Source: an uncultured Dehalococcoidia bacterium
GTDB lineage: Bacteria; Chloroflexota; Dehalococcoidia; Lucifugimonadales; Australimonadaceae
Assembly: GCA_964391355.1 (NCBI GenBank)
Contig: CAYMJY010000004.1
Span: 1 to 45,073 of the forward strand
Direction of reading: 5' to 3'
Length of the DNA: 45,073 nt
Below, piece by piece: positions 17,493 to 38,739 of the stretch. Position 1 is the stretch's first letter; each line of letters starts with the position of its first letter. The notes beneath the pieces are model-generated. The model saw only the letters and a program-made list of their open reading frames with translations. It searched no databases and was not told the origin of the DNA. The translations under genes and the position numbers were made by a program.

Positions 17493-18443
17493 TTGATGGC
17501 TACTACAGTGGAAACTCTAAAATTATCGAAGGAAGTAAAAGCAAGGCCGTTGTCTGAATGGCCCACTATTGCAGTAGAGCTACTGGGAACTCAAACTCGA
17601 ATACTTCAAGGCAAACAATATAGACATCGCGTGATTGAATGTGGTGATTCTGGCGAGCCTCTCATTTTGATTCACGGTGTTGGGGGGCATGCAGAGACCT
17701 ATGCTAGGAACCTACACAACTTAAAAAATAACGGCTTTCATGTTTTCGCTATTGACGCTCTATATCATGGATTCTCTACACATGAACCCTATGATGATGA
17801 TGACAGAACTGGTAGGCAAGCAGAAGCATTAGCAGATCTAATTGATGCGCTTGGATTTCCATATGCACATGTCGAAGGTGAGTCTATGGGCGGTGCTATC
17901 ACAATGGAATTTGGACTGAAATTCCCAGAAAAGGCTGGGAAACTAATCATGAACACTGGGGTCGGTGGCGTTAATTGGAAAAAAACAGACTTCCCTCAAA
18001 ATCCTGGTGGTGGGAATACTCTCGCCGAACTTTCTCGAGCTTCAATCCTCACACCAACCTTTGAAACCGTGAGGAAACGGATGGAGTGGTTAGTCGCGGA
18101 ACCTTCAAGAATGACCGATGAAATGGTCGACGTTCGGTTACGCCTCTACTCTTTCACAGATGTATATGAATCTATCAAAAGGGTGTACCGAGTTGCAGAT
18201 GACAGTCCTCAAGACTGGAACAGGGAACCCAAGTATGAAGAGGAAGACCTTCAGGGATTCAAGCCGGAAGGTCTTGTTTTCTGGACTGAGAAAAACCCTG
18301 GTCAAGGTCCTGCCTTTGGTGAGTATGCTGCAAGTAAAATACGCGGCGCAAAATTCTATAACATGCTTGATGCTGCACATTGGCCTCAATGGGAAAAACC
18401 TGAAGAGCATGATCAGGTTTTAATCGATTTCATACTAGGTTAG
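17493..18443 (+). CDS. alpha/beta hydrolase, HppC/OhpC-like meta-cleavage product hydrolase
   Basis: HGVGGHAETYARNL, GESMGG nucleophile elbow, AAHWPQWEKP; SD GGAGG upstream. Confidence 0.8.
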   Translation: MMATTVETLKLSKEVKARPLSEWPTIAVELLGTQTRILQGKQYRHRVIECGDSGEPLILIHGVGGHAETYARNLHNLKNNGFHVFAIDALYHGFSTHEPYDDDDRTGRQAEALADLIDALGFPYAHVEGESMGGAITMEFGLKFPEKAGKLIMNTGVGGVNWKKTDFPQNPGGGNTLAELSRASILTPTFETVRKRMEWLVAEPSRMTDEMVDVRLRLYSFTDVYESIKRVYRVADDSPQDWNREPKYEEEDLQGFKPEGLVFWTEKNPGQGPAFGEYAASKIRGAKFYNMLDAAHWPQWEKPEEHDQVLIDFILG

Positions 18444-18452
18444 GAATACTTT

Positions 18453-18485
18453 AAGCAGGGGCTCGGAATCCGAGCCCCTGCTTTT
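18453..18485 (+). terminator. Rho-independent terminator
   Basis: AAGCAGGGGCTCGG-AAT-CCGAGCCCCTGCTT perfect 14-bp inverted repeat ending in TTTT. Confidence 0.85.
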
Positions 18486-18493
18486 GGAAAAAT

Positions 18494-19015
18494 ATGACCA
18501 GCTACGACTACCGAAGTCTAATCAACGATTACGTCAATTTCCCCAAACAGGGCATTATTTTTCGAGATATCTCTCCCCTTCTGAGCCATCCAAAGGCATT
18601 CAAGTTAGCGATTAAAGAAATGTCAGACCCTTTTCGTGATTCAAGTATCGACCGAGTCATTAGTCTTGAATCTAGGGGTTTTATCATAGGTTCCCCCATT
18701 GCTCTGGAGCTCGGAGTTGGCTTTACTCCTATTCGCAAAGCAGGCAAACTCCCGGGCCATACACTCCAGGTTCCATACTCACTTGAATATGGGGAAGCCT
18801 CACTTGAATTACAGTCCGATGTACTAAAACCCAATCAAAATGTTTTATTAGTTGACGATGTGCTTGCAACTGGTGGAACTCTCGAAGCCGCAATCAGATT
18901 GATCAAAAATTGCGGAGCCCAAATTGCAGGTGTTGCTATAATTTTAGAGCTAAAAGATTTATGCGGACGCGATAAGTTATCAGGGTATGAAGTGACAACG
19001 CTAATACAAATTTAA
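18494..19015 (+). CDS. apt: adenine phosphoribosyltransferase
   Basis: FPKQGIIFRDISPLL, ESRGF, RKAGKLP, YSLEYG, VDDVLATGGT. Confidence 0.97.
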   Translation: MTSYDYRSLINDYVNFPKQGIIFRDISPLLSHPKAFKLAIKEMSDPFRDSSIDRVISLESRGFIIGSPIALELGVGFTPIRKAGKLPGHTLQVPYSLEYGEASLELQSDVLKPNQNVLLVDDVLATGGTLEAAIRLIKNCGAQIAGVAIILELKDLCGRDKLSGYEVTTLIQI

Positions 19016-19956
19016 GTGCTACTCAATGCTGGGATTACTTGGTCAGAGAAAATTTCCAATGATTCATAATCTTCATTTGCTACACTTACGAAAACTGTGT
19101 TTAGACCCAATTTTTCGAACTCTTGTAATCGCTTTATAGCCTGCTCTGCCGTACCCACCAGACTCCGATATCCTTCTGGTAAACGGCCACCTCTGGCGTT
19201 CCATTTTTCTTCTGCGAGTGCCTCAGTCGGTGCCAAACACAATCGATCAAGCTTTGTCACTTCAATTTCTGATGCGTCCCTACCTTGCTCATTACAATAA
19301 TTGCGAAGCAAGTTAAGTTTATGACGAAAAACCTCAGGATTTGCCATCATTAAGTTGCATAAGTCTGCTTCTTCAGCCACTATCCTCAAAGTGACCTTTT
19401 CACCACCACCTCCAATTAAAATCCTTGGCCTTGGCTTCTGCAATGCTTTTGGTTCTAGTAAGGCATCCCTTGTTACGAAATGTTTACCCTCATAAGTAGA
19501 AGAACCCTCACTCCATAAACTTTTAATCAACCTGACTGCATCTCTAAGCTGAGAAAGCCTAGTCGAGGCTTTTGGGAATTCATAACCATATCCTTTATAT
19601 TCAGCTTCGTACCACCCAGCACCAATCCCAAGAATTGACCTCCCCCCACTGATAACATCTAAAGTAGTGGCCATCTTGGCAAGCAATGCTGGGTTTCTGT
19701 ATCCAACACTTGTCACCATAGTCGTAATATTGATTTTTTCTGTAGTTGCTGCAACTGCGCCCATGGTAACCCAAGGCTCCATAAATGACTGCTCAGCAGG
19801 CCCAACTCCAGGTATTTGCCAGAAGTGGTCCATGAAGGAAATGTAACTAAATCCATTGTTTTCGAGCCATTGAGCTCGAGTTTTAAGTTCAGGAAAGATT
19901 TCTTCAGCAGACCCAGCATTCGTAAGAAAAGAATTATTATGCAGCCCGAATTTCAT
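19012..19956 (-). CDS. luciferase-like (LLM) F420-dependent oxidoreductase, TIGR03560-like
   Basis: MDHFWQI, EPWVTMGAVA, YRNPALLAKMATTLDVISGGR, GIGAGWYEAE, IGGGGEKVTLR. Confidence 0.9.
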   Translation of the reverse strand: MKFGLHNNSFLTNAGSAEEIFPELKTRAQWLENNGFSYISFMDHFWQIPGVGPAEQSFMEPWVTMGAVAATTEKINITTMVTSVGYRNPALLAKMATTLDVISGGRSILGIGAGWYEAEYKGYGYEFPKASTRLSQLRDAVRLIKSLWSEGSSTYEGKHFVTRDALLEPKALQKPRPRILIGGGGEKVTLRIVAEEADLCNLMMANPEVFRHKLNLLRNYCNEQGRDASEIEVTKLDRLCLAPTEALAEEKWNARGGRLPEGYRSLVGTAEQAIKRLQEFEKLGLNTVFVSVANEDYESLEIFSDQVIPALSST

Positions 19957-20038
19957 TAGTCCACCTCATTCATTGCCCGATGACGACTCTAATGTTAGTA
20001 ATTGTATCTAGTCAAGCTCATTGCATATTATTGGGGAA

Positions 20039-20067
20039 TTGACGCATCGGCAGACGGAGTCTAGCCT
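20039..20067 (+). promoter_or_regulatory. sigma70-type promoter for downstream hydrolase
   Basis: TTGACG-N17-TAGCCT. A divergent TTGACT (20015-20010), N18, TAGAGT may drive the LLM gene. Confidence 0.6.
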
Positions 20068-20097
20068 TAACAGATGCTATAAATCAGGAGTTGCAAA

Positions 20098-20958
20098 ATG
20101 ACCAATAATCCATGGCGCGAAAATTGGGTTCTCGCAAGAGACATTAAAACACGGTACGTAGATGCTGGGGAAAACGGCCCAACTGTTGTGATGCTTCATG
20201 GCGGAGGACCTGGCGCTTCTGGTGCTGCGGGTTTTCAGCACATAATACCCTTGATGAGCGATCACTTCAGAATTTATGCCCCAGACCAAATTTCATATGG
20301 CGAGACTACAGCACCCACTATCGCTTACCCGGTTCTAGCTCATCATAGCCTAGTGAATCATGTGCGAGATTGGATGGATGCTCTTTGCATTACAAACGCT
20401 TATTTTATTGGGAACTCCCAAGGTGCCTATGTAGCAGCTCGATATGCACTCGATTTCCCTGGGCGTGTCTCAAAATTGTTCATGATAGGCAGTGGCACTA
20501 TAGCGCAAGCGTATGGGCTCCCTGCTCCTGAAAATGAGGCAAGAAAAGCGCTGCAGGAATTTGATGGCAGTCAAGATGGAATGCGCCGGTTCCTTCAAGC
20601 CATTGTGAATGACCCTGCCAAGGTCACTGATTCTTTAGTTGAAAGTCGTACAGCTAAGTATAACTTGCCCGGTATTCCTGAAATGACACAATCTTTTAGC
20701 GAAGGACGAGAAAGGATAATGACCAATTCGTTTTGGCATGACAAATTTATGCTTAAAGGCAAATTGGAAAACCTCGATATTCCTTCAATGATGGTTTGGG
20801 GCGAAGATGATCTTTTTGCACCAGTTGAACTTGGTTACGAGTTAGAAAAGCTTCTCCCCAATATCCAATTTAAGTATGCACCTAAAGCAGGTCACCAAGT
20901 CCAAACAGACCAACCGGAATTAGTTGCGCAAATGGCTACTGAATTCTTTCTCACTTAG
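20098..20958 (+). CDS. alpha/beta hydrolase, MhpC/BphD/HsaD-like C-C hydrolase
   Basis: HGGGPGASG, GNSQG (Ser107), WGEDD, AGHQVQ; catalytic triad intact. Confidence 0.82.
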   Translation: MTNNPWRENWVLARDIKTRYVDAGENGPTVVMLHGGGPGASGAAGFQHIIPLMSDHFRIYAPDQISYGETTAPTIAYPVLAHHSLVNHVRDWMDALCITNAYFIGNSQGAYVAARYALDFPGRVSKLFMIGSGTIAQAYGLPAPENEARKALQEFDGSQDGMRRFLQAIVNDPAKVTDSLVESRTAKYNLPGIPEMTQSFSEGRERIMTNSFWHDKFMLKGKLENLDIPSMMVWGEDDLFAPVELGYELEKLLPNIQFKYAPKAGHQVQTDQPELVAQMATEFFLT

Positions 20959-27017: not shown

Positions 27018-28262
27018 ATGTTTACAGCTGAAGGTTCTAATTTAAATCGACGTTGGCGAATGCTAGCTCTAATATGGCTGGTATACGTGTGCTTCGGTAT
27101 CACTGTAGGCAGCTTTCCTCCATTAGTTAGTTTCATATCTGAAGATTTAGGACTATCTAGCACAGAAATGGGCTTAGTCCTTGGTGCGTGGCAACTAGTT
27201 TATATTTTTACTGCTTCCCCAATCGGAAGACTAATAGACAAGTATGGGGTGCGTAAGTCCGTTACAGTTGGTCTGATAATTATTTTGATTTCACTTGTTT
27301 CCAGAACTATTGCTGACAACTTCATAACTCTTTTTTTAACCGTTGCCATTTTTGGGATAGGGGGTCCAATTATTTCAATTGGTGCTCCAAAAGTTGTCTC
27401 CGAATGGTTCCAAGGTACTGAAAGAGGTTTCGCCGCCGGTGTTTATACCACAGCGCCTTTGGCTGGAGTCGCAATAGCTATTGCAACTGCAGCAAGCATA
27501 GTAGAACCAATTACAGGAAGTTGGCGAGGCATCGCTTTAGTATATGGCTCAATTATTTTAGGGGTTTTGATTCTTTGGGTTTTAGCTGCCGTTGATCCTC
27601 CAGACAAAGCAAGTGAAAGTTTCAATGGACGAGATAAAGCAAAGCCCCAAACACTACCTCTTCTAAAAATTACAAACGTTCAAATAATACTCATTTTGGC
27701 TTTAGTAACATTTTTAGCAAGCCATGGTTTGCAAAACTGGCTACCCACACTCCTAACCGATGATGGTATGTCAGTAACCATCGCTGGGAATTGGGTATCC
27801 GCAGCAATAGTAGCCGGTGCGATTAGCCTTGTTCTTATTCCTCTAGTATCAACATATGGAATCAGGCGGTTTGTGATGGGGTCGATGCTTTTAGCATCGT
27901 CTCTTAGTGGATTAGGGTTAGTCTTTTTTGATGGCACTGGCCAGATCATCTCTGTTATGGCTTGGTCGATTGCCAGAAGCCCTATTATTGCCGTTTCAAT
28001 GCTGATATTGATGGATACCAAAGGCGTTGGGAAAGCCAAAATGGGCACCGCAGCAGGGCTATTTTATGCAGTAGCAGAGGTAGGGGGGTTTTCAGGTCCC
28101 TTCATATTGGGTGCGGTTCGCGACATCACCGGAAATCTCGATATAGGCGTTGTTTCAATCTCACTAGCCACAATGGCTTTAATCGCACTAATGAAACTGG
28201 TCCGCGAATCTGCATCCGATATAGAAAGAGACTCTACCCCTAATACCACCCATGTTCCTTAA
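27018..28262 (+). CDS. MFS transporter (CynX/NimT-like)
   Basis: About 12 hydrophobic segments and the GRLIDKYGVR motif A. Confidence 0.88.
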   Translation: MFTAEGSNLNRRWRMLALIWLVYVCFGITVGSFPPLVSFISEDLGLSSTEMGLVLGAWQLVYIFTASPIGRLIDKYGVRKSVTVGLIIILISLVSRTIADNFITLFLTVAIFGIGGPIISIGAPKVVSEWFQGTERGFAAGVYTTAPLAGVAIAIATAASIVEPITGSWRGIALVYGSIILGVLILWVLAAVDPPDKASESFNGRDKAKPQTLPLLKITNVQIILILALVTFLASHGLQNWLPTLLTDDGMSVTIAGNWVSAAIVAGAISLVLIPLVSTYGIRRFVMGSMLLASSLSGLGLVFFDGTGQIISVMAWSIARSPIIAVSMLILMDTKGVGKAKMGTAAGLFYAVAEVGGFSGPFILGAVRDITGNLDIGVVSISLATMALIALMKLVRESASDIERDSTPNTTHVP

Positions 28263-28755
28263 TCAAACCTCGGAGGTACGCAATCTGGCCAATGTGCTGG
28301 ATATTATCGCCAAGAACAATCGATAAAATTTGTGCCAGTGTCATAGAGTCCCCTCCTGGGCGCATGGGTGGGAACTCTTCATCCAAGTCGTTTGGTTCTA
28401 ATTTTGAGATGAATTCGTCTGTTCTCGACTTAACAGCATCCCAAAAACTGATCAATGATTCGGCTGATGCACCTGTAAAGGTGTGCACATTATCAGGAGT
28501 CCACTGAATTTCATTATCGACTATGCCAAATTCTTCAGACCAATTTCCTTCTTCCCATTCCGTTTTCTTGCTTTGGACTCTGGAAAGTAGATTATCTTGC
28601 ACTCTTGTTAGATGCATTGCCAACCAAGCAATAGGGTTGGACCTCTCACCACCTGGCTGTGCAACTAACTCGCTGTCGGTAAGACCATCAAGCGACCTTT
28701 TGAATGTATTCTCAGCCCTGTTTAAAATTGTACCGAATAGTAAATTTGGCTCCAT
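28240..28755 (-). CDS. DinB/DUF664 family protein (thiol S-transferase-like)
   Basis: NPIAWLAMHLTRVQD and QHIGQIAYLRG, typical of the DinB four-helix family. Confidence 0.85.
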   Translation of the reverse strand: MEPNLLFGTILNRAENTFKRSLDGLTDSELVAQPGGERSNPIAWLAMHLTRVQDNLLSRVQSKKTEWEEGNWSEEFGIVDNEIQWTPDNVHTFTGASAESLISFWDAVKSRTDEFISKLEPNDLDEEFPPMRPGGDSMTLAQILSIVLGDNIQHIGQIAYLRGLIKEHGWY

Positions 28756-34097: not shown

Positions 34098-34502
34098 CTA
34101 AACTGTATCCGAGACGATCAATGGAGCTTCAGAAATTTCACCATCTACAATCCAAAAATTTCGAATTTGGGGGTTTTCTTTGTCCATCAAAGAAATAAGC
34201 ATGTACTCGGCATCTGGCCAAGTAGCCAATCGAACATCTGTGGAAGATGGGAAAGCAGGTGTATGTGTATGAGAATGGTAAATGGCACCTAATTCCCATC
34301 CGTTATCTTCTATTTCGTTATAAGCATTCAGAACCTGTTTGCCGTCCATACTATACCGATAAGGACTTTGCTCCACATTTGTAATGGGGTAAAGCTTTAC
34401 TGCAACTCCTTCTCTTGAACCCAAGATTCCACAACATTCGTTTGGCATTTCACTAATCGCATGCCTGATTAGGTCATCTTTAATTGATTTCGATATTTGC
34501 AT
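34098..34502 (-). CDS. M67/JAMM (Mov34) metallopeptidase, Mec-like
   Basis: PNECCGIL and the YHSH-x-x-x-x-x-PS-x-x-D JAMM zinc motif. Confidence 0.92.
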   Translation of the reverse strand: MQISKSIKDDLIRHAISEMPNECCGILGSREGVAVKLYPITNVEQSPYRYSMDGKQVLNAYNEIEDNGWELGAIYHSHTHTPAFPSSTDVRLATWPDAEYMLISLMDKENPQIRNFWIVDGEISEAPLIVSDTV

Positions 34503-34526: not shown

Positions 34527-35567
34527 TTACCTATCAACGATAATTGGAAATTCCAAAGAGTCGCTAACACTGCCAATCACCTTGTTGAATACGCCTTTTG
34601 CCTTAAGTGCGCTTAAAAACAACGTTAATTTTGCAGTTGGTATTGAAATAAGTAATCCACCAGAAGTTTGGGCATCACATAGCAATAATTTATCAGAATC
34701 TGAAATCTTTGAACCCCAGCCTACTTTTTGACCCAAAGTCTCTAAGTTAGTAATAGTTCCACCTGGAACTACTCCTTGATTTAATAGATCTCGCGTACCC
34801 TCTAGCTCAGGAATGAAATTAGCATTGACTAATGCAGTTGTTCCGCTGCTCTCCATCATTCTATGCAGATGGCCAACTAGACCAAATCCCGTTACATCTG
34901 TAGCCGAACTAACACCAGCTGAATTCATTACTTCAGATGCCTCACGATTTAAAATGCGCATAACCTTAACGGCATTGTCTAAGACTTCTGGTGACACTAT
35001 TTGATTTTTAGCTGCAGTCGAAATAATACCAGTGCCCAAGGGCTTTGTGAGCACCAAAGAATCCCCGGGCTTAGCCCCTACATTCTTAACCAAATTCTTG
35101 GGATCGACTGTGCCAGTAACCGCCATTCCATACTTGGGTTCCTTGTCTTTGATTGTGTGTCCGCCCGCCACAAGCATTCCAGCGTCTCGAGCAACTTCTG
35201 AGCCACCTTCCAGTATTCGAGCTAAGATAGAAATCGGCTGGTCTTCTGGAAAACACACAATATTTAAAGCCAGTACTGGTTTTCCTCCCATAGCGTACAC
35301 ATCACTAATCGCGTTAGTTGCCGAAATAGCTCCAAATTCAAAAGGGTCATCTACTATAGGTGGGAAAAAATCGACAGTTTGGATGATTGCAAGATTATCA
35401 GCAAGGCGATACACGGCAGCATCATCACCGGTCTCTATACCTACTAATAGCTCTGGGTGGCTGATATGAGGTATGTGCTTTAGCACTTCACCGAGAACCT
35501 CGGCGTTAAATTTTCCTGCTCAGCCCGCGCATGTTGCCAGACTTGTTAACCGAGTCACATTCTCCAT
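34527..35567 (-). CDS. selD: selenide, water dikinase (selenophosphate synthetase), selenocysteine-containing (U16)
   Basis: MENVTRLTSLATCAG-TGA-AGK from the ATG at 35567 is in frame with the track ORF (DDAAVY, TVDFFPP, NAISDVYAMGG, GGHT, TDVTGFGL, DAQTSGGLL). Confidence 0.95.
35489..35505 (-). promoter_or_regulatory. bacterial SECIS-like hairpin
   Basis: CGCCGAG-GTT-CTCGGTG stem-loop begins 14 nt 3' of the UGA (35522-35520), with a G-rich apical loop. Confidence 0.75.
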
Positions 35568-35632
35568 GGCATAAGTATATAGGTGATTTCATGTAACAGC
35601 GAGCATTATACTTAGTGTATAAGGAGGATGTC

Positions 35633-35875
35633 ATGGCTAATGGAATTGTGCTTAAGAGTAGTAAAGAAGGAGATCGGCTTGAAATAGGTTGTACACACCA
35701 AAATGGGTTATTGTACGTTGTTCCATCAGCTGCTAATTGGGTTTGTGACAAAAAAACTGTACCCGCGCATGCCCTTGCGGGGTTCCTTAGGGATGTATTC
35801 GAACTAAACCTATCTTCTGTTCAGGAAATAGCTCAAAAATGGGGTATTTATTATCGCGAAAGGCCACTAGATTAG
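35633..35875 (+). CDS. small hypothetical protein (80 aa) with Cys/His residues
   Basis: Perfect SD AAGGAGG (35621-35627) before the ATG at 35633; protein-like composition; fills the gap between selD and ftsH. Confidence 0.75.
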   Translation: MANGIVLKSSKEGDRLEIGCTHQNGLLYVVPSAANWVCDKKTVPAHALAGFLRDVFELNLSSVQEIAQKWGIYYRERPLD

Positions 35876-37878: not shown

Positions 37879-37908
37879 TTGACGCTTTTTACTAAGTCAA
37901 CCTATTAT
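37879..37908 (+). promoter_or_regulatory. sigma70-type promoter for greA-like gene
   Basis: TTGACG-N18-TATTAT. The ORF-track TTG start is this -35 hexamer. Confidence 0.6.
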
Positions 37909-37938
37909 GTGAATACTCCAATATTTAGGAAGTCTTGC

Positions 37939-38739
37939 ATGACGAACATGTCTGATGCGCTCACCGGCTATATAACAAGCACAGGGTTGATGAAAACTTC
38001 TAATGCCCAATATGCACAAAAGGAGTTACATCGCTTTGGTCGCTCAATTGGGTGGAATCGCCTAGTAGCGTCTTTAGCACCTCCTGAAATAGCTAGCTAT
38101 GCCGAAAGCGTTATTTCTGCAGGTGGTGATATTTCAGGAAGGTTGGGTTTCATTAAAGATTTTCTATCGTACTTGAAAAAACATGGCCTTTCCTCTCATT
38201 CTCTTGCGCCTCATGTGAAGATCCCTAGAGCTGCGTCTCAAGCAGCTGCGGCAATTAGCTCTAAAAATAACGAGACTATTCAGATTACCCCAGATGGACA
38301 TGCTTCAATGCTGAGTGAACTTGAAGGGTTGAAAAATCAAAGGGGCCCTATTGCTGAAACAATTGGCATAGCTCGATCGGATGGTGACATCTCTGACAAT
38401 GCGCCACTTGAAGCTGCAAGAGAGTTGCAAGTCAACACTGAAAGCAGAATCAGAGAGTTAGAAGAAATGCTACGTAGGAGCGTTGTTCTAGACCAAACCC
38501 GCCCTTCGGGTAAAGCTATCTTCATCAAAATAGGAAGTAAAGTCGAACTGATTGACGAGGAGTCTGGCAAAGCTACCTCTTACACTCTTGTTGATTCCGC
38601 TGAAGCTGATCCCAGCCTAGGGAAAATTTCCGTGGCATCTCCTGTAGGGAAAGCTGTAATGGGTCAAAAACAGGGACAAAGTATCAAAGTTCAGGCTCCT
38701 AAAGGTGAACGTCACTATCGAGTCAAATCTATTTCTTAA
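37939..38739 (+). CDS. greA: GreA/GreB-family elongation factor with extra N-terminal helical domain
   Basis: C-terminal half has ITPDG..ELE.LK, GDISDN, IGSKV, GKISVASPVGKA, VQAPKG. The ATG at 37939 follows SD AGGA. Confidence 0.85.
   Translation: MTNMSDALTGYITSTGLMKTSNAQYAQKELHRFGRSIGWNRLVASLAPPEIASYAESVISAGGDISGRLGFIKDFLSYLKKHGLSSHSLAPHVKIPRAASQAAAAISSKNNETIQITPDGHASMLSELEGLKNQRGPIAETIGIARSDGDISDNAPLEAARELQVNTESRIRELEEMLRRSVVLDQTRPSGKAIFIKIGSKVELIDEESGKATSYTLVDSAEADPSLGKISVASPVGKAVMGQKQGQSIKVQAPKGERHYRVKSIS

Follow-up and report, generated by a model that had tools for sequence, protein, structure and literature searches.

On the minus strand of a 45,073-nucleotide stretch of DNA from an uncultured Dehalococcoidia bacterium (assembly GCA_964391355.1, contig CAYMJY010000004.1, positions 1 to 45,073; hereafter the window) lies a gene for selenide, water dikinase (SelD), the reading frame of which is crossed by a single TGA at codon 16. 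Gene finders list only a part that begins downstream of this codon. From comparison of sequences we conclude that the UGA almost certainly encodes selenocysteine (Sec). Related loci used for comparison are referred to by numbers preceded by L. The features of selD are the following.

34527..35567, minus strand: full-length selD (selenide, water dikinase), 346 codons including the predicted Sec16, stop codon TAA at 34529-34527
35605..35634, minus strand: predicted sigma-70-like promoter upstream of selD, ATGACA-18 nt-TATAAT, 11/12 matches in a consensus scan
35565..35567, minus strand: ATG start codon, the earliest start past the upstream in-frame stop
35520..35522, minus strand: in-frame UGA, codon 16, in the context C13-A-G-U16-A-G-K19
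35506..35519, minus strand: 14-nucleotide spacer from UGA to stem; codons as in L003 but for one synonymous change, AAA to AAG
35489..35505, minus strand: SECIS-like hairpin (SECIS, selenocysteine insertion sequence), 5' arm CGCCGAG at 35505-35499, loop GTT/GUU at 35498-35496, 3' arm CTCGGTG at 35495-35489
35484..35486, minus strand: GTG restart site of the gene finders, which yields a truncated call of 319 residues

The selD reading frame and its truncated gene call

Read from ATG 35567, the minus strand translates as MENVTRLTSLATCAG - TGA (35522-35520) - AGKFNAEVLGEVLKH..., with the TGA as the one internal stop in 346 codons and without any frameshift. The relatives L003 and L004 start at the equivalent ATG, again 15 codons ahead of the TGA. 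The initial annotation had proposed this frame, with the TGA as its sole stop, and had noted that the listed open reading frame (ORF) begins at GTG 35486 and loses the catalytic N-terminus; minus-strand translation bears out both statements, the listed ORF comprising 319 residues as against a frame of 346 codons. The GTG, located 12 codons past the TGA, is probably not the true start of selD, and the 319-residue ORF is an artefact of the UGA being taken as a stop.

Are other SelD proteins affected in the same way? The 120 best relatives of the selD product in the protein database measure 253-327 residues, with a coverage of the query that does not exceed 92%. That all 120 are short is the signature of gene callers that restart 3' of the Sec codon; the internal start at their disposal varies from one relative to the next, with no alternative start conserved among them. 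Upstream of the ATG, the predicted promoter, a consensus match only, would give selD a 5' untranslated region of about 30 nucleotides.

Identity of the product and its catalytic loop

For the search with NCBIfam models, U was replaced by C in the translated product. The SelD equivalog model TIGR00476, with a cutoff of 125 bits, reaches 385.6 bits over residues 6-311 (model positions 1-308 of 311); for NF002098 the cutoff is 299 bits, and the match to residues 2-337 has 362 bits. In precomputed annotations, the PurM-like domains AIRS (PF00586) and AIRS_C (PF02769) are assigned to P0001, the truncated GTG-start product of the window, and to all 120 relatives. The solved structure closest to the product is that of E. 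coli SelD (PDB 3u0o, E = 3e-76). By these matches the gene is identified as selD.

At the N-terminus, the protein aligns with E. coli SelD without gaps: U16 falls on C17, K19 on K20, G18 on C19 and C13 on G14. This agrees with the initial annotation, which had paired U16 and K19 with the E. coli residues and had remarked that C13 creates a CxxU motif. Because the hidden Markov model (HMM) matches begin at residue 6 or 2 and the N-terminus aligns without gaps, the segment 5' of the TGA is genuine SelD sequence that contains the catalytic loop. Sec or Cys at the position of E. coli C17 and Lys at that of K20 are both needed for SelD activity.

A second Cys of the catalytic loop occupies one of two places in 79 distinct Sec-SelD sequences. 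It lies at -3 (CxxU) in 27 and at +2 (UxC) in 42; none has both and 10 have neither. The window SelD belongs to the -3 class. This distribution suggests that -3 and +2 may be two exchangeable sites for a resolving thiol in the SelD loop.

Two of the three SelD genes of the Cys type, L025 3400-4401 (a Holophagales metagenome-assembled genome, MAG) and L039 10001-10999 (a Bacteroidales MAG), continue in frame from an upstream sequence resembling the C-terminus of a NifS-type cysteine desulfurase, an arrangement that suggests NifS-SelD fusions.

Retention of the TGA in the population and in related genes

Could the TGA stand for a TGC or TGT that was misread in sequencing or assembly? Three independent assemblies of the same population, from different projects, carry it unchanged: Logan (L001), TARA (L002) and a third marine metagenome (L005). 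The sequence of the population is contained in about 20 marine or subsurface metagenome runs. Logan contigs from six of them span 35380-35680 at word depths of about 4-17x, and it was here that a TGC or TGT, named at the outset as evidence against Sec, might have surfaced; all six runs show TGA. Single-nucleotide polymorphisms of the population are found in these contigs at 35457, 35483, 35541, 35559, 35569, 35591, 35629 and 35632, and the TGA, spacer and hairpin are free of variants in the contigs of all six runs. Since the TGA is invariant across assemblies and runs, an error is excluded.

The codon is also retained beyond the population. The peptide RLTSLATCAG-U-AGKFNAE and its TGA are kept in the Dehalococcoidia MAG GCA_002728295.1 (73% identity) and in a relative on a 2.64-Mb contig (64% identity), and the TGA is likewise kept in L003, L004 and L087-L093. 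A wider sample, the 80 best SelD loci from a scan of one genome per species (relatives above 60% identity were not among the matches listed), has TGA at the equivalent of codon 16 in 77 loci and TGC or TGT in 3, so that the alternation of Cys and Sec among orthologues, proposed initially as a check, is indeed seen. The 80 loci come from Dehalococcoidia, Anaerolineae, Nitrospirota, Marinimicrobia, Gemmatimonadota, Acidobacteriota, Bacillota and others, and the motif R/K-L-T...G-U-A-x-K is common to SelD across phyla.

A candidate SECIS downstream of the UGA

The stem-loop CGCCGAG-GTT-CTCGGTG starts exactly 14 nucleotides past the TGA, as first described. It has 7 base pairs and a free energy of -8.7 kcal/mol, and its loop lies 21 nucleotides from the UGA. 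In the bSECISearch model the apical loop is placed about 16-37 nucleotides from the UGA, with a G in the loop; the window hairpin fits this description in our own hairpin scan.

L003, L087 and L088-L093 carry the hairpin without any change, in the face of a protein divergence of 26%. From the UGA to the end of the hairpin, the window and L003, which share 74% of their amino acids, have 10 of 11 codons in common, compared to 42% gene-wide at conserved residues (P = 0.001); of 237 sliding windows, 3 equal this codon identity. Past the UGA of the 79 distinct Sec-SelD sites, the best hairpins have a median free energy of -9.9 kcal/mol, as against -3.1 kcal/mol at control positions of the same genes (Mann-Whitney P = 2e-32). 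Loops with G in first place occur at 67/79 of these sites versus 27% of controls, and triloops at 64/79. The hairpins that follow the five genuine TGA stops of the window are weak (-5.6 to +3.0 kcal/mol). The resemblance to a bacterial SECIS, noticed from the letters of the window alone, is thus upheld by a family-wide excess of hairpins, by conservation at synonymous sites and by an apex similar to that of fdhF, and we regard the hairpin at 35489-35505 as a supported candidate for a bacterial SECIS.

The distance of the loop from the UGA differs among SelD lineages. Across L003-L085, within 60 nucleotides past the Sec codon, the loop is found 17, 20, 21 or 33 nucleotides after the UGA. The commonest register is 33 nucleotides (40 loci, 30 distinct sequences), and its stem pairs covary: pair 4 is G-C in 19 sequences, C-G in 7, U-A in 2 and U-G in 2. 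Stem changes in this register are coupled to changes of amino acid (LAQVLRQ, LTQVLGQ, LSQVLRQ, LVQVLHH), which indicates that RNA pairing is preserved at the expense of the protein. L004 has two overlapping alternative hairpins, the stronger one six nucleotides further on. Tentatively, and with rather more doubt than conviction, we consider that the SECIS may have slid inside the coding region, the 21-nucleotide register having formed anew on a duplicated E-V-L codon motif (AEVLGEVL), alongside the alternative -3 and +2 thiol sites of the SelD loop. If true, this would amount to a modest case study of how a SECIS evolves and of two structural options in the active-site loop of SelD.

A terminator-like site on the plus strand at 35491-35503 was rejected as a feature of its own: it reads as the SECIS hairpin on the opposite strand, followed by the complement of the spacer, which is rich in T, and no plus-strand gene enters it.

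How is the UGA read?

We consider it highly probable that Sec is inserted into SelD by the standard mechanism that depends on SelB and a SECIS. Several observations weigh against this. The 45-kb window has no tRNA-Sec (ARAGORN finds no tRNA gene at all in it, and Rfam a partial 16S rRNA only), and NCBIfam and Pfam detect neither SelA nor SelB among its approximately 45 ORFs. When 90 loci were searched with E. coli SelA and SelB as phmmer queries and with ARAGORN, no selA, selB or tRNA-Sec was found in the roughly 25 loci from Chloroflexota. An equally good hairpin with a G early in the loop follows 0.96% of window positions and 0.90% of TGA triplets, and the 61-nucleotide fold is no more stable than its shuffles (z = -0.57). 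Within the sample, the 21-nucleotide register of the window is common only to L003 and, imperfectly, L004, most Dehalococcoidia having 33 nucleotides; the stem in this register is invariant in the close clade, and the evidence for it is conservation, not covariation. Taken alone, the window hairpin is an occurrence of about 1 in 100, and it is the comparative evidence that makes it convincing.

What else might explain the TGA? A nonsense mutation could have inactivated selD, with the upstream 15 codons as decaying remnants. The truncation by gene callers and the lack of Sec machinery in the window would fit such a pseudogene, but the TGA and its flanking peptide are kept in relatives between 99% and about 45% identity, as well as in several phyla, the frame has neither a frameshift nor another stop, synonymous sites around the hairpin are conserved and the population is without variation at the TGA; we hold this explanation to be exceedingly improbable. 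Alternatively, the UGA might terminate translation, the real enzyme being made from GTG 35486 or another internal start and the first 15 codons serving as a leader peptide or untranslated leader. A GTG is present at a suitable place, and recoding of UGA competes with termination, with a reported 30-40% recoding in E. coli (PMC4513850). However, the truncated product would be devoid of the loop with Sec or Cys and Lys that aligns to C17 and K20 of E. coli, matches to the SelD HMMs already begin at residue 2-6, the conserved peptide ahead of the TGA is SelD sequence and not a leader, and no alternative internal start is conserved among the relatives, so that termination appears very improbable. 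The conservation of the TGA and its flanks means that neither a pseudogene nor a functional N-terminally truncated enzyme explains selD.

A third possibility is that UGA is read as Trp, Gly or Cys, through reassignment of the code or near-cognate suppression. UGA is reassigned in some uncultured bacterial lineages, and the lack of a tRNA-Sec in the window would agree with a standard residue at this position. Yet TGA ends five of the 28 well-supported genes of the window (tmk, pdxT, dxr, uppS and frr) at the expected length, which places the organism on the standard code, and selD alone has an internal TGA. Moreover, the site is the exact catalytic Sec/Cys position, and a hairpin of the SECIS type lies downstream of it, just as in Sec-SelD genes already known; reading as a standard residue is to us scarcely credible.

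With Sec insertion as the preferred reading, translation would begin at ATG 35567 and the ribosome would reach the UGA at codon 16, where Sec would be inserted with SelB presumably bound to the hairpin. The product would be a selenide, water dikinase of 346 residues that forms selenophosphate from selenide and ATP. Sec16 and Lys19, in a flexible N-terminal loop, would correspond to the catalytic pair Cys17 and Lys20 in E. coli SelD, and Cys13 of the CxxU motif could form a selenenylsulfide with Sec16, in a putative redox role.

Sec machinery and further selenoprotein genes

A Sec-dependent SelD logically requires the Sec machinery, and it is reasonable to infer the full Sec trait for this organism, with selA, selB and selC located elsewhere in the genome. 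A selB-model match in the window was rejected: it is the GTPase domain of IF-2 and scores 109 bits against a cutoff of 242. In other lineages, tRNA-Sec adjoins Sec-selD at L029 1506-1604 (a Nitrospirota MAG) and at L070 6641-6737 and L082 1983-2079 (Gemmatimonadaceae MAGs). The sole SelA in the 90 loci is encoded at L040 6186-7619 (a Bacillota MAG), about 2.4 kb upstream of selD. Used as a query toward a SelA of Chloroflexota, it returned 120 matches listed, all of them Firmicutes-like.

The initial annotation had expected further UGA-interrupted genes. When the 45-kb window was scanned for ORFs with read-through and for a CxxU or UxxC context, selD was the only convincing case, the rest lying in antisense or non-coding frames. 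Four Dehalococcoidia genomes have, within a few kb of selD, a DUF3179 gene with an in-frame UGA in the context VTW-U-PLCYS, the TGA being located as follows.

L006 20281-20283, minus strand: in-frame TGA of DUF3179
L007 13984: in-frame TGA of DUF3179
L008 13304: in-frame TGA of DUF3179
L014 13553: in-frame TGA of DUF3179

The Pfam match to DUF3179 (291 bits) spans the UGA. A hairpin of 8 base pairs with a GUY triloop begins 14 nucleotides after it, and a compensatory change from G-C to A-U distinguishes genome pairs; the geometry, with its 14-nucleotide spacer and GUY triloop, equals that of the window selD. DUF3179 with UxxC/T has already been catalogued as a selenoprotein family (PMC9312934, PMC13188914). 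A small Rdx/SelW-like ORF with the motif IEYCAV-U (CxxU; TGA at L063 473-475, plus strand; Pfam Rdx, 77.5 bits) lies near Sec-selD in an Anaerolineaceae MAG.

These genes of relatives, together with published work on the same groups, give good indirect evidence of Sec decoding in the lineage. BSepDB places two Dehalococcoidia MAGs among the ten bacteria richest in selenoprotein genes, with 49 and 46 of them (PMC13326102). At Lost City, most MAGs that encode glycine reductase have clusters that include SelA and SelB, and GrdB sequences were obtained from MAGs of the SAR202 cluster (bioRxiv 10.1101/2022.01.25.477282).

Genomic neighbourhood and taxonomy

Two further features of the window concern the neighbourhood of selD and the affiliation of the organism.

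34098..34502, minus strand: Prok-JAB (MPN/JAMM metalloprotease-like) gene, 24 nucleotides downstream of selD; Pfam PF14464, 67 bits
1-787, minus strand: 5' half of the 16S rRNA gene, cut by the window edge

The Prok-JAB gene is a possible operon partner of selD. The gene order ftsH, small ORF, selD, Prok-JAB, recO is common to the window, GCA_002728295.1 and the relative on the 2.64-Mb contig. The adjacency of selD and Prok-JAB is kept in the marine SAR202-type clade of the window only (the L003 group, L004 and L026) and not in other Dehalococcoidia; being confined to one marine clade, it is treated as synteny rather than as a functional association.

Both fluorescence in situ hybridization probes for SAR202, SAR202-104R and SAR202-312R, match the 16S rRNA gene of the window with zero mismatches, at 673-690 and 462-479, the expected 16S positions. 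For SAR202-312R the match is to its presumed sequence. The sequence of SAR202-104R is confirmed in bioRxiv 10.1101/328013. The closest SelD relatives among the matches listed are marine Dehalococcoidia MAGs. The SAR202 label given to the organism at the outset is thereby supported by its sequence.

Other genes of the window are noted here in their own right. An ORF at 35615-35875 on the plus strand (80-86 residues) is divergent from selD and overlaps the predicted selD promoter region; it belongs to no Pfam or NCBIfam family, and its equivalent is called in L003, L004, L005, L087 and L088-L093. A GreA homologue at 37879-38739 (plus strand) measures 286 residues, with the GreA domains at 132-286 and an N-terminal extension of about 130 residues without a family match; the GreA proteins of relatives measure 264-267 residues. 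The window contains one gene of the DinB_2/MST family (28240-28755, minus strand), and L004, the 2.64-Mb contig, four tandem paralogues at 18284-20516.

Discussion

What does the interrupted frame amount to? Judged by its sequence, the gene would be a true Sec-SelD equipped with a bacterial SECIS, which gene callers have listed as a truncated ORF. Its biology is known, with small peculiarities only, namely the CxxU arrangement and the lineage-specific SECIS register. The main value of the finding lies in annotation. The public calls for this SAR202 population and for its 120 nearest relatives are truncated and without the catalytic loop, and inferences on selenium metabolism or SelD alignments built on them would mislead. 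Pelagic SAR202 bacteria, abundant in the dark ocean, would use selenium and very probably decode Sec, which is relevant to trace-element ecology. Sec decoding by SAR202 agrees with the selenoprotein-rich Dehalococcoidia already catalogued (PMC13326102) and raises no new mechanistic question.

Comparison with known systems

E. coli SelD (3u0o) has Cys17 where the window has the predicted Sec16, and needs no recoding. It carries its second Cys at 19, where the window protein has Gly, and Gly at 14, where the window protein has Cys. SelD of Aquifex aeolicus, reportedly a native Sec enzyme crystallised as a Cys variant, is a homologue (PDB 2yye, 2zod; E = 2e-57) whose loop SSGCAAK aligns to CAGUAGK of the window; it lacks a Cys at -3 and is less identical to the window protein.

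The experimentally defined SECIS of E. coli fdhF is, like the window hairpin, located in coding sequence just past the UGA, with the loop at 18 nucleotides from it compared to 21 in the window. The apex is rich in G and U in both, GCA-GGUC-UGC in fdhF, taken from the E. coli genome sequence, and GAG-GUU-CUC in the window. The fdhF element is longer, at about 40 nucleotides, and contains a bulged U, whereas the window hairpin is a perfect 7-bp stem with a triloop and no bulge.

That Sec-SelD is known in other bacteria, as the initial annotation had stated, is well established: together with FdhA, SelD is the most widespread of bacterial selenoproteins (PMC1794560). Its mis-annotation is described as frequent, and Acetomicrobium mobile, with LRLTELARTSGUAAKLGPADL, is an example of Sec-SelD from BSepDB (PMC13326102). 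The window gene shares with bacterial Sec-SelD the AIRS and AIRS_C domains, the UGA at the catalytic position of the N-terminal Gly-rich loop with Lys three residues on, the SECIS hairpin directly 3' of the UGA within the coding region, and even the N-terminally truncated mis-call. It differs in its Cys, which lies at -3 (CxxU) and not at +2 (UxC), and in its SECIS loop at 21 nucleotides, a register that within the sample belongs to its SAR202 clade alone. Nothing essential sets it apart from the known bacterial Sec-SelD.

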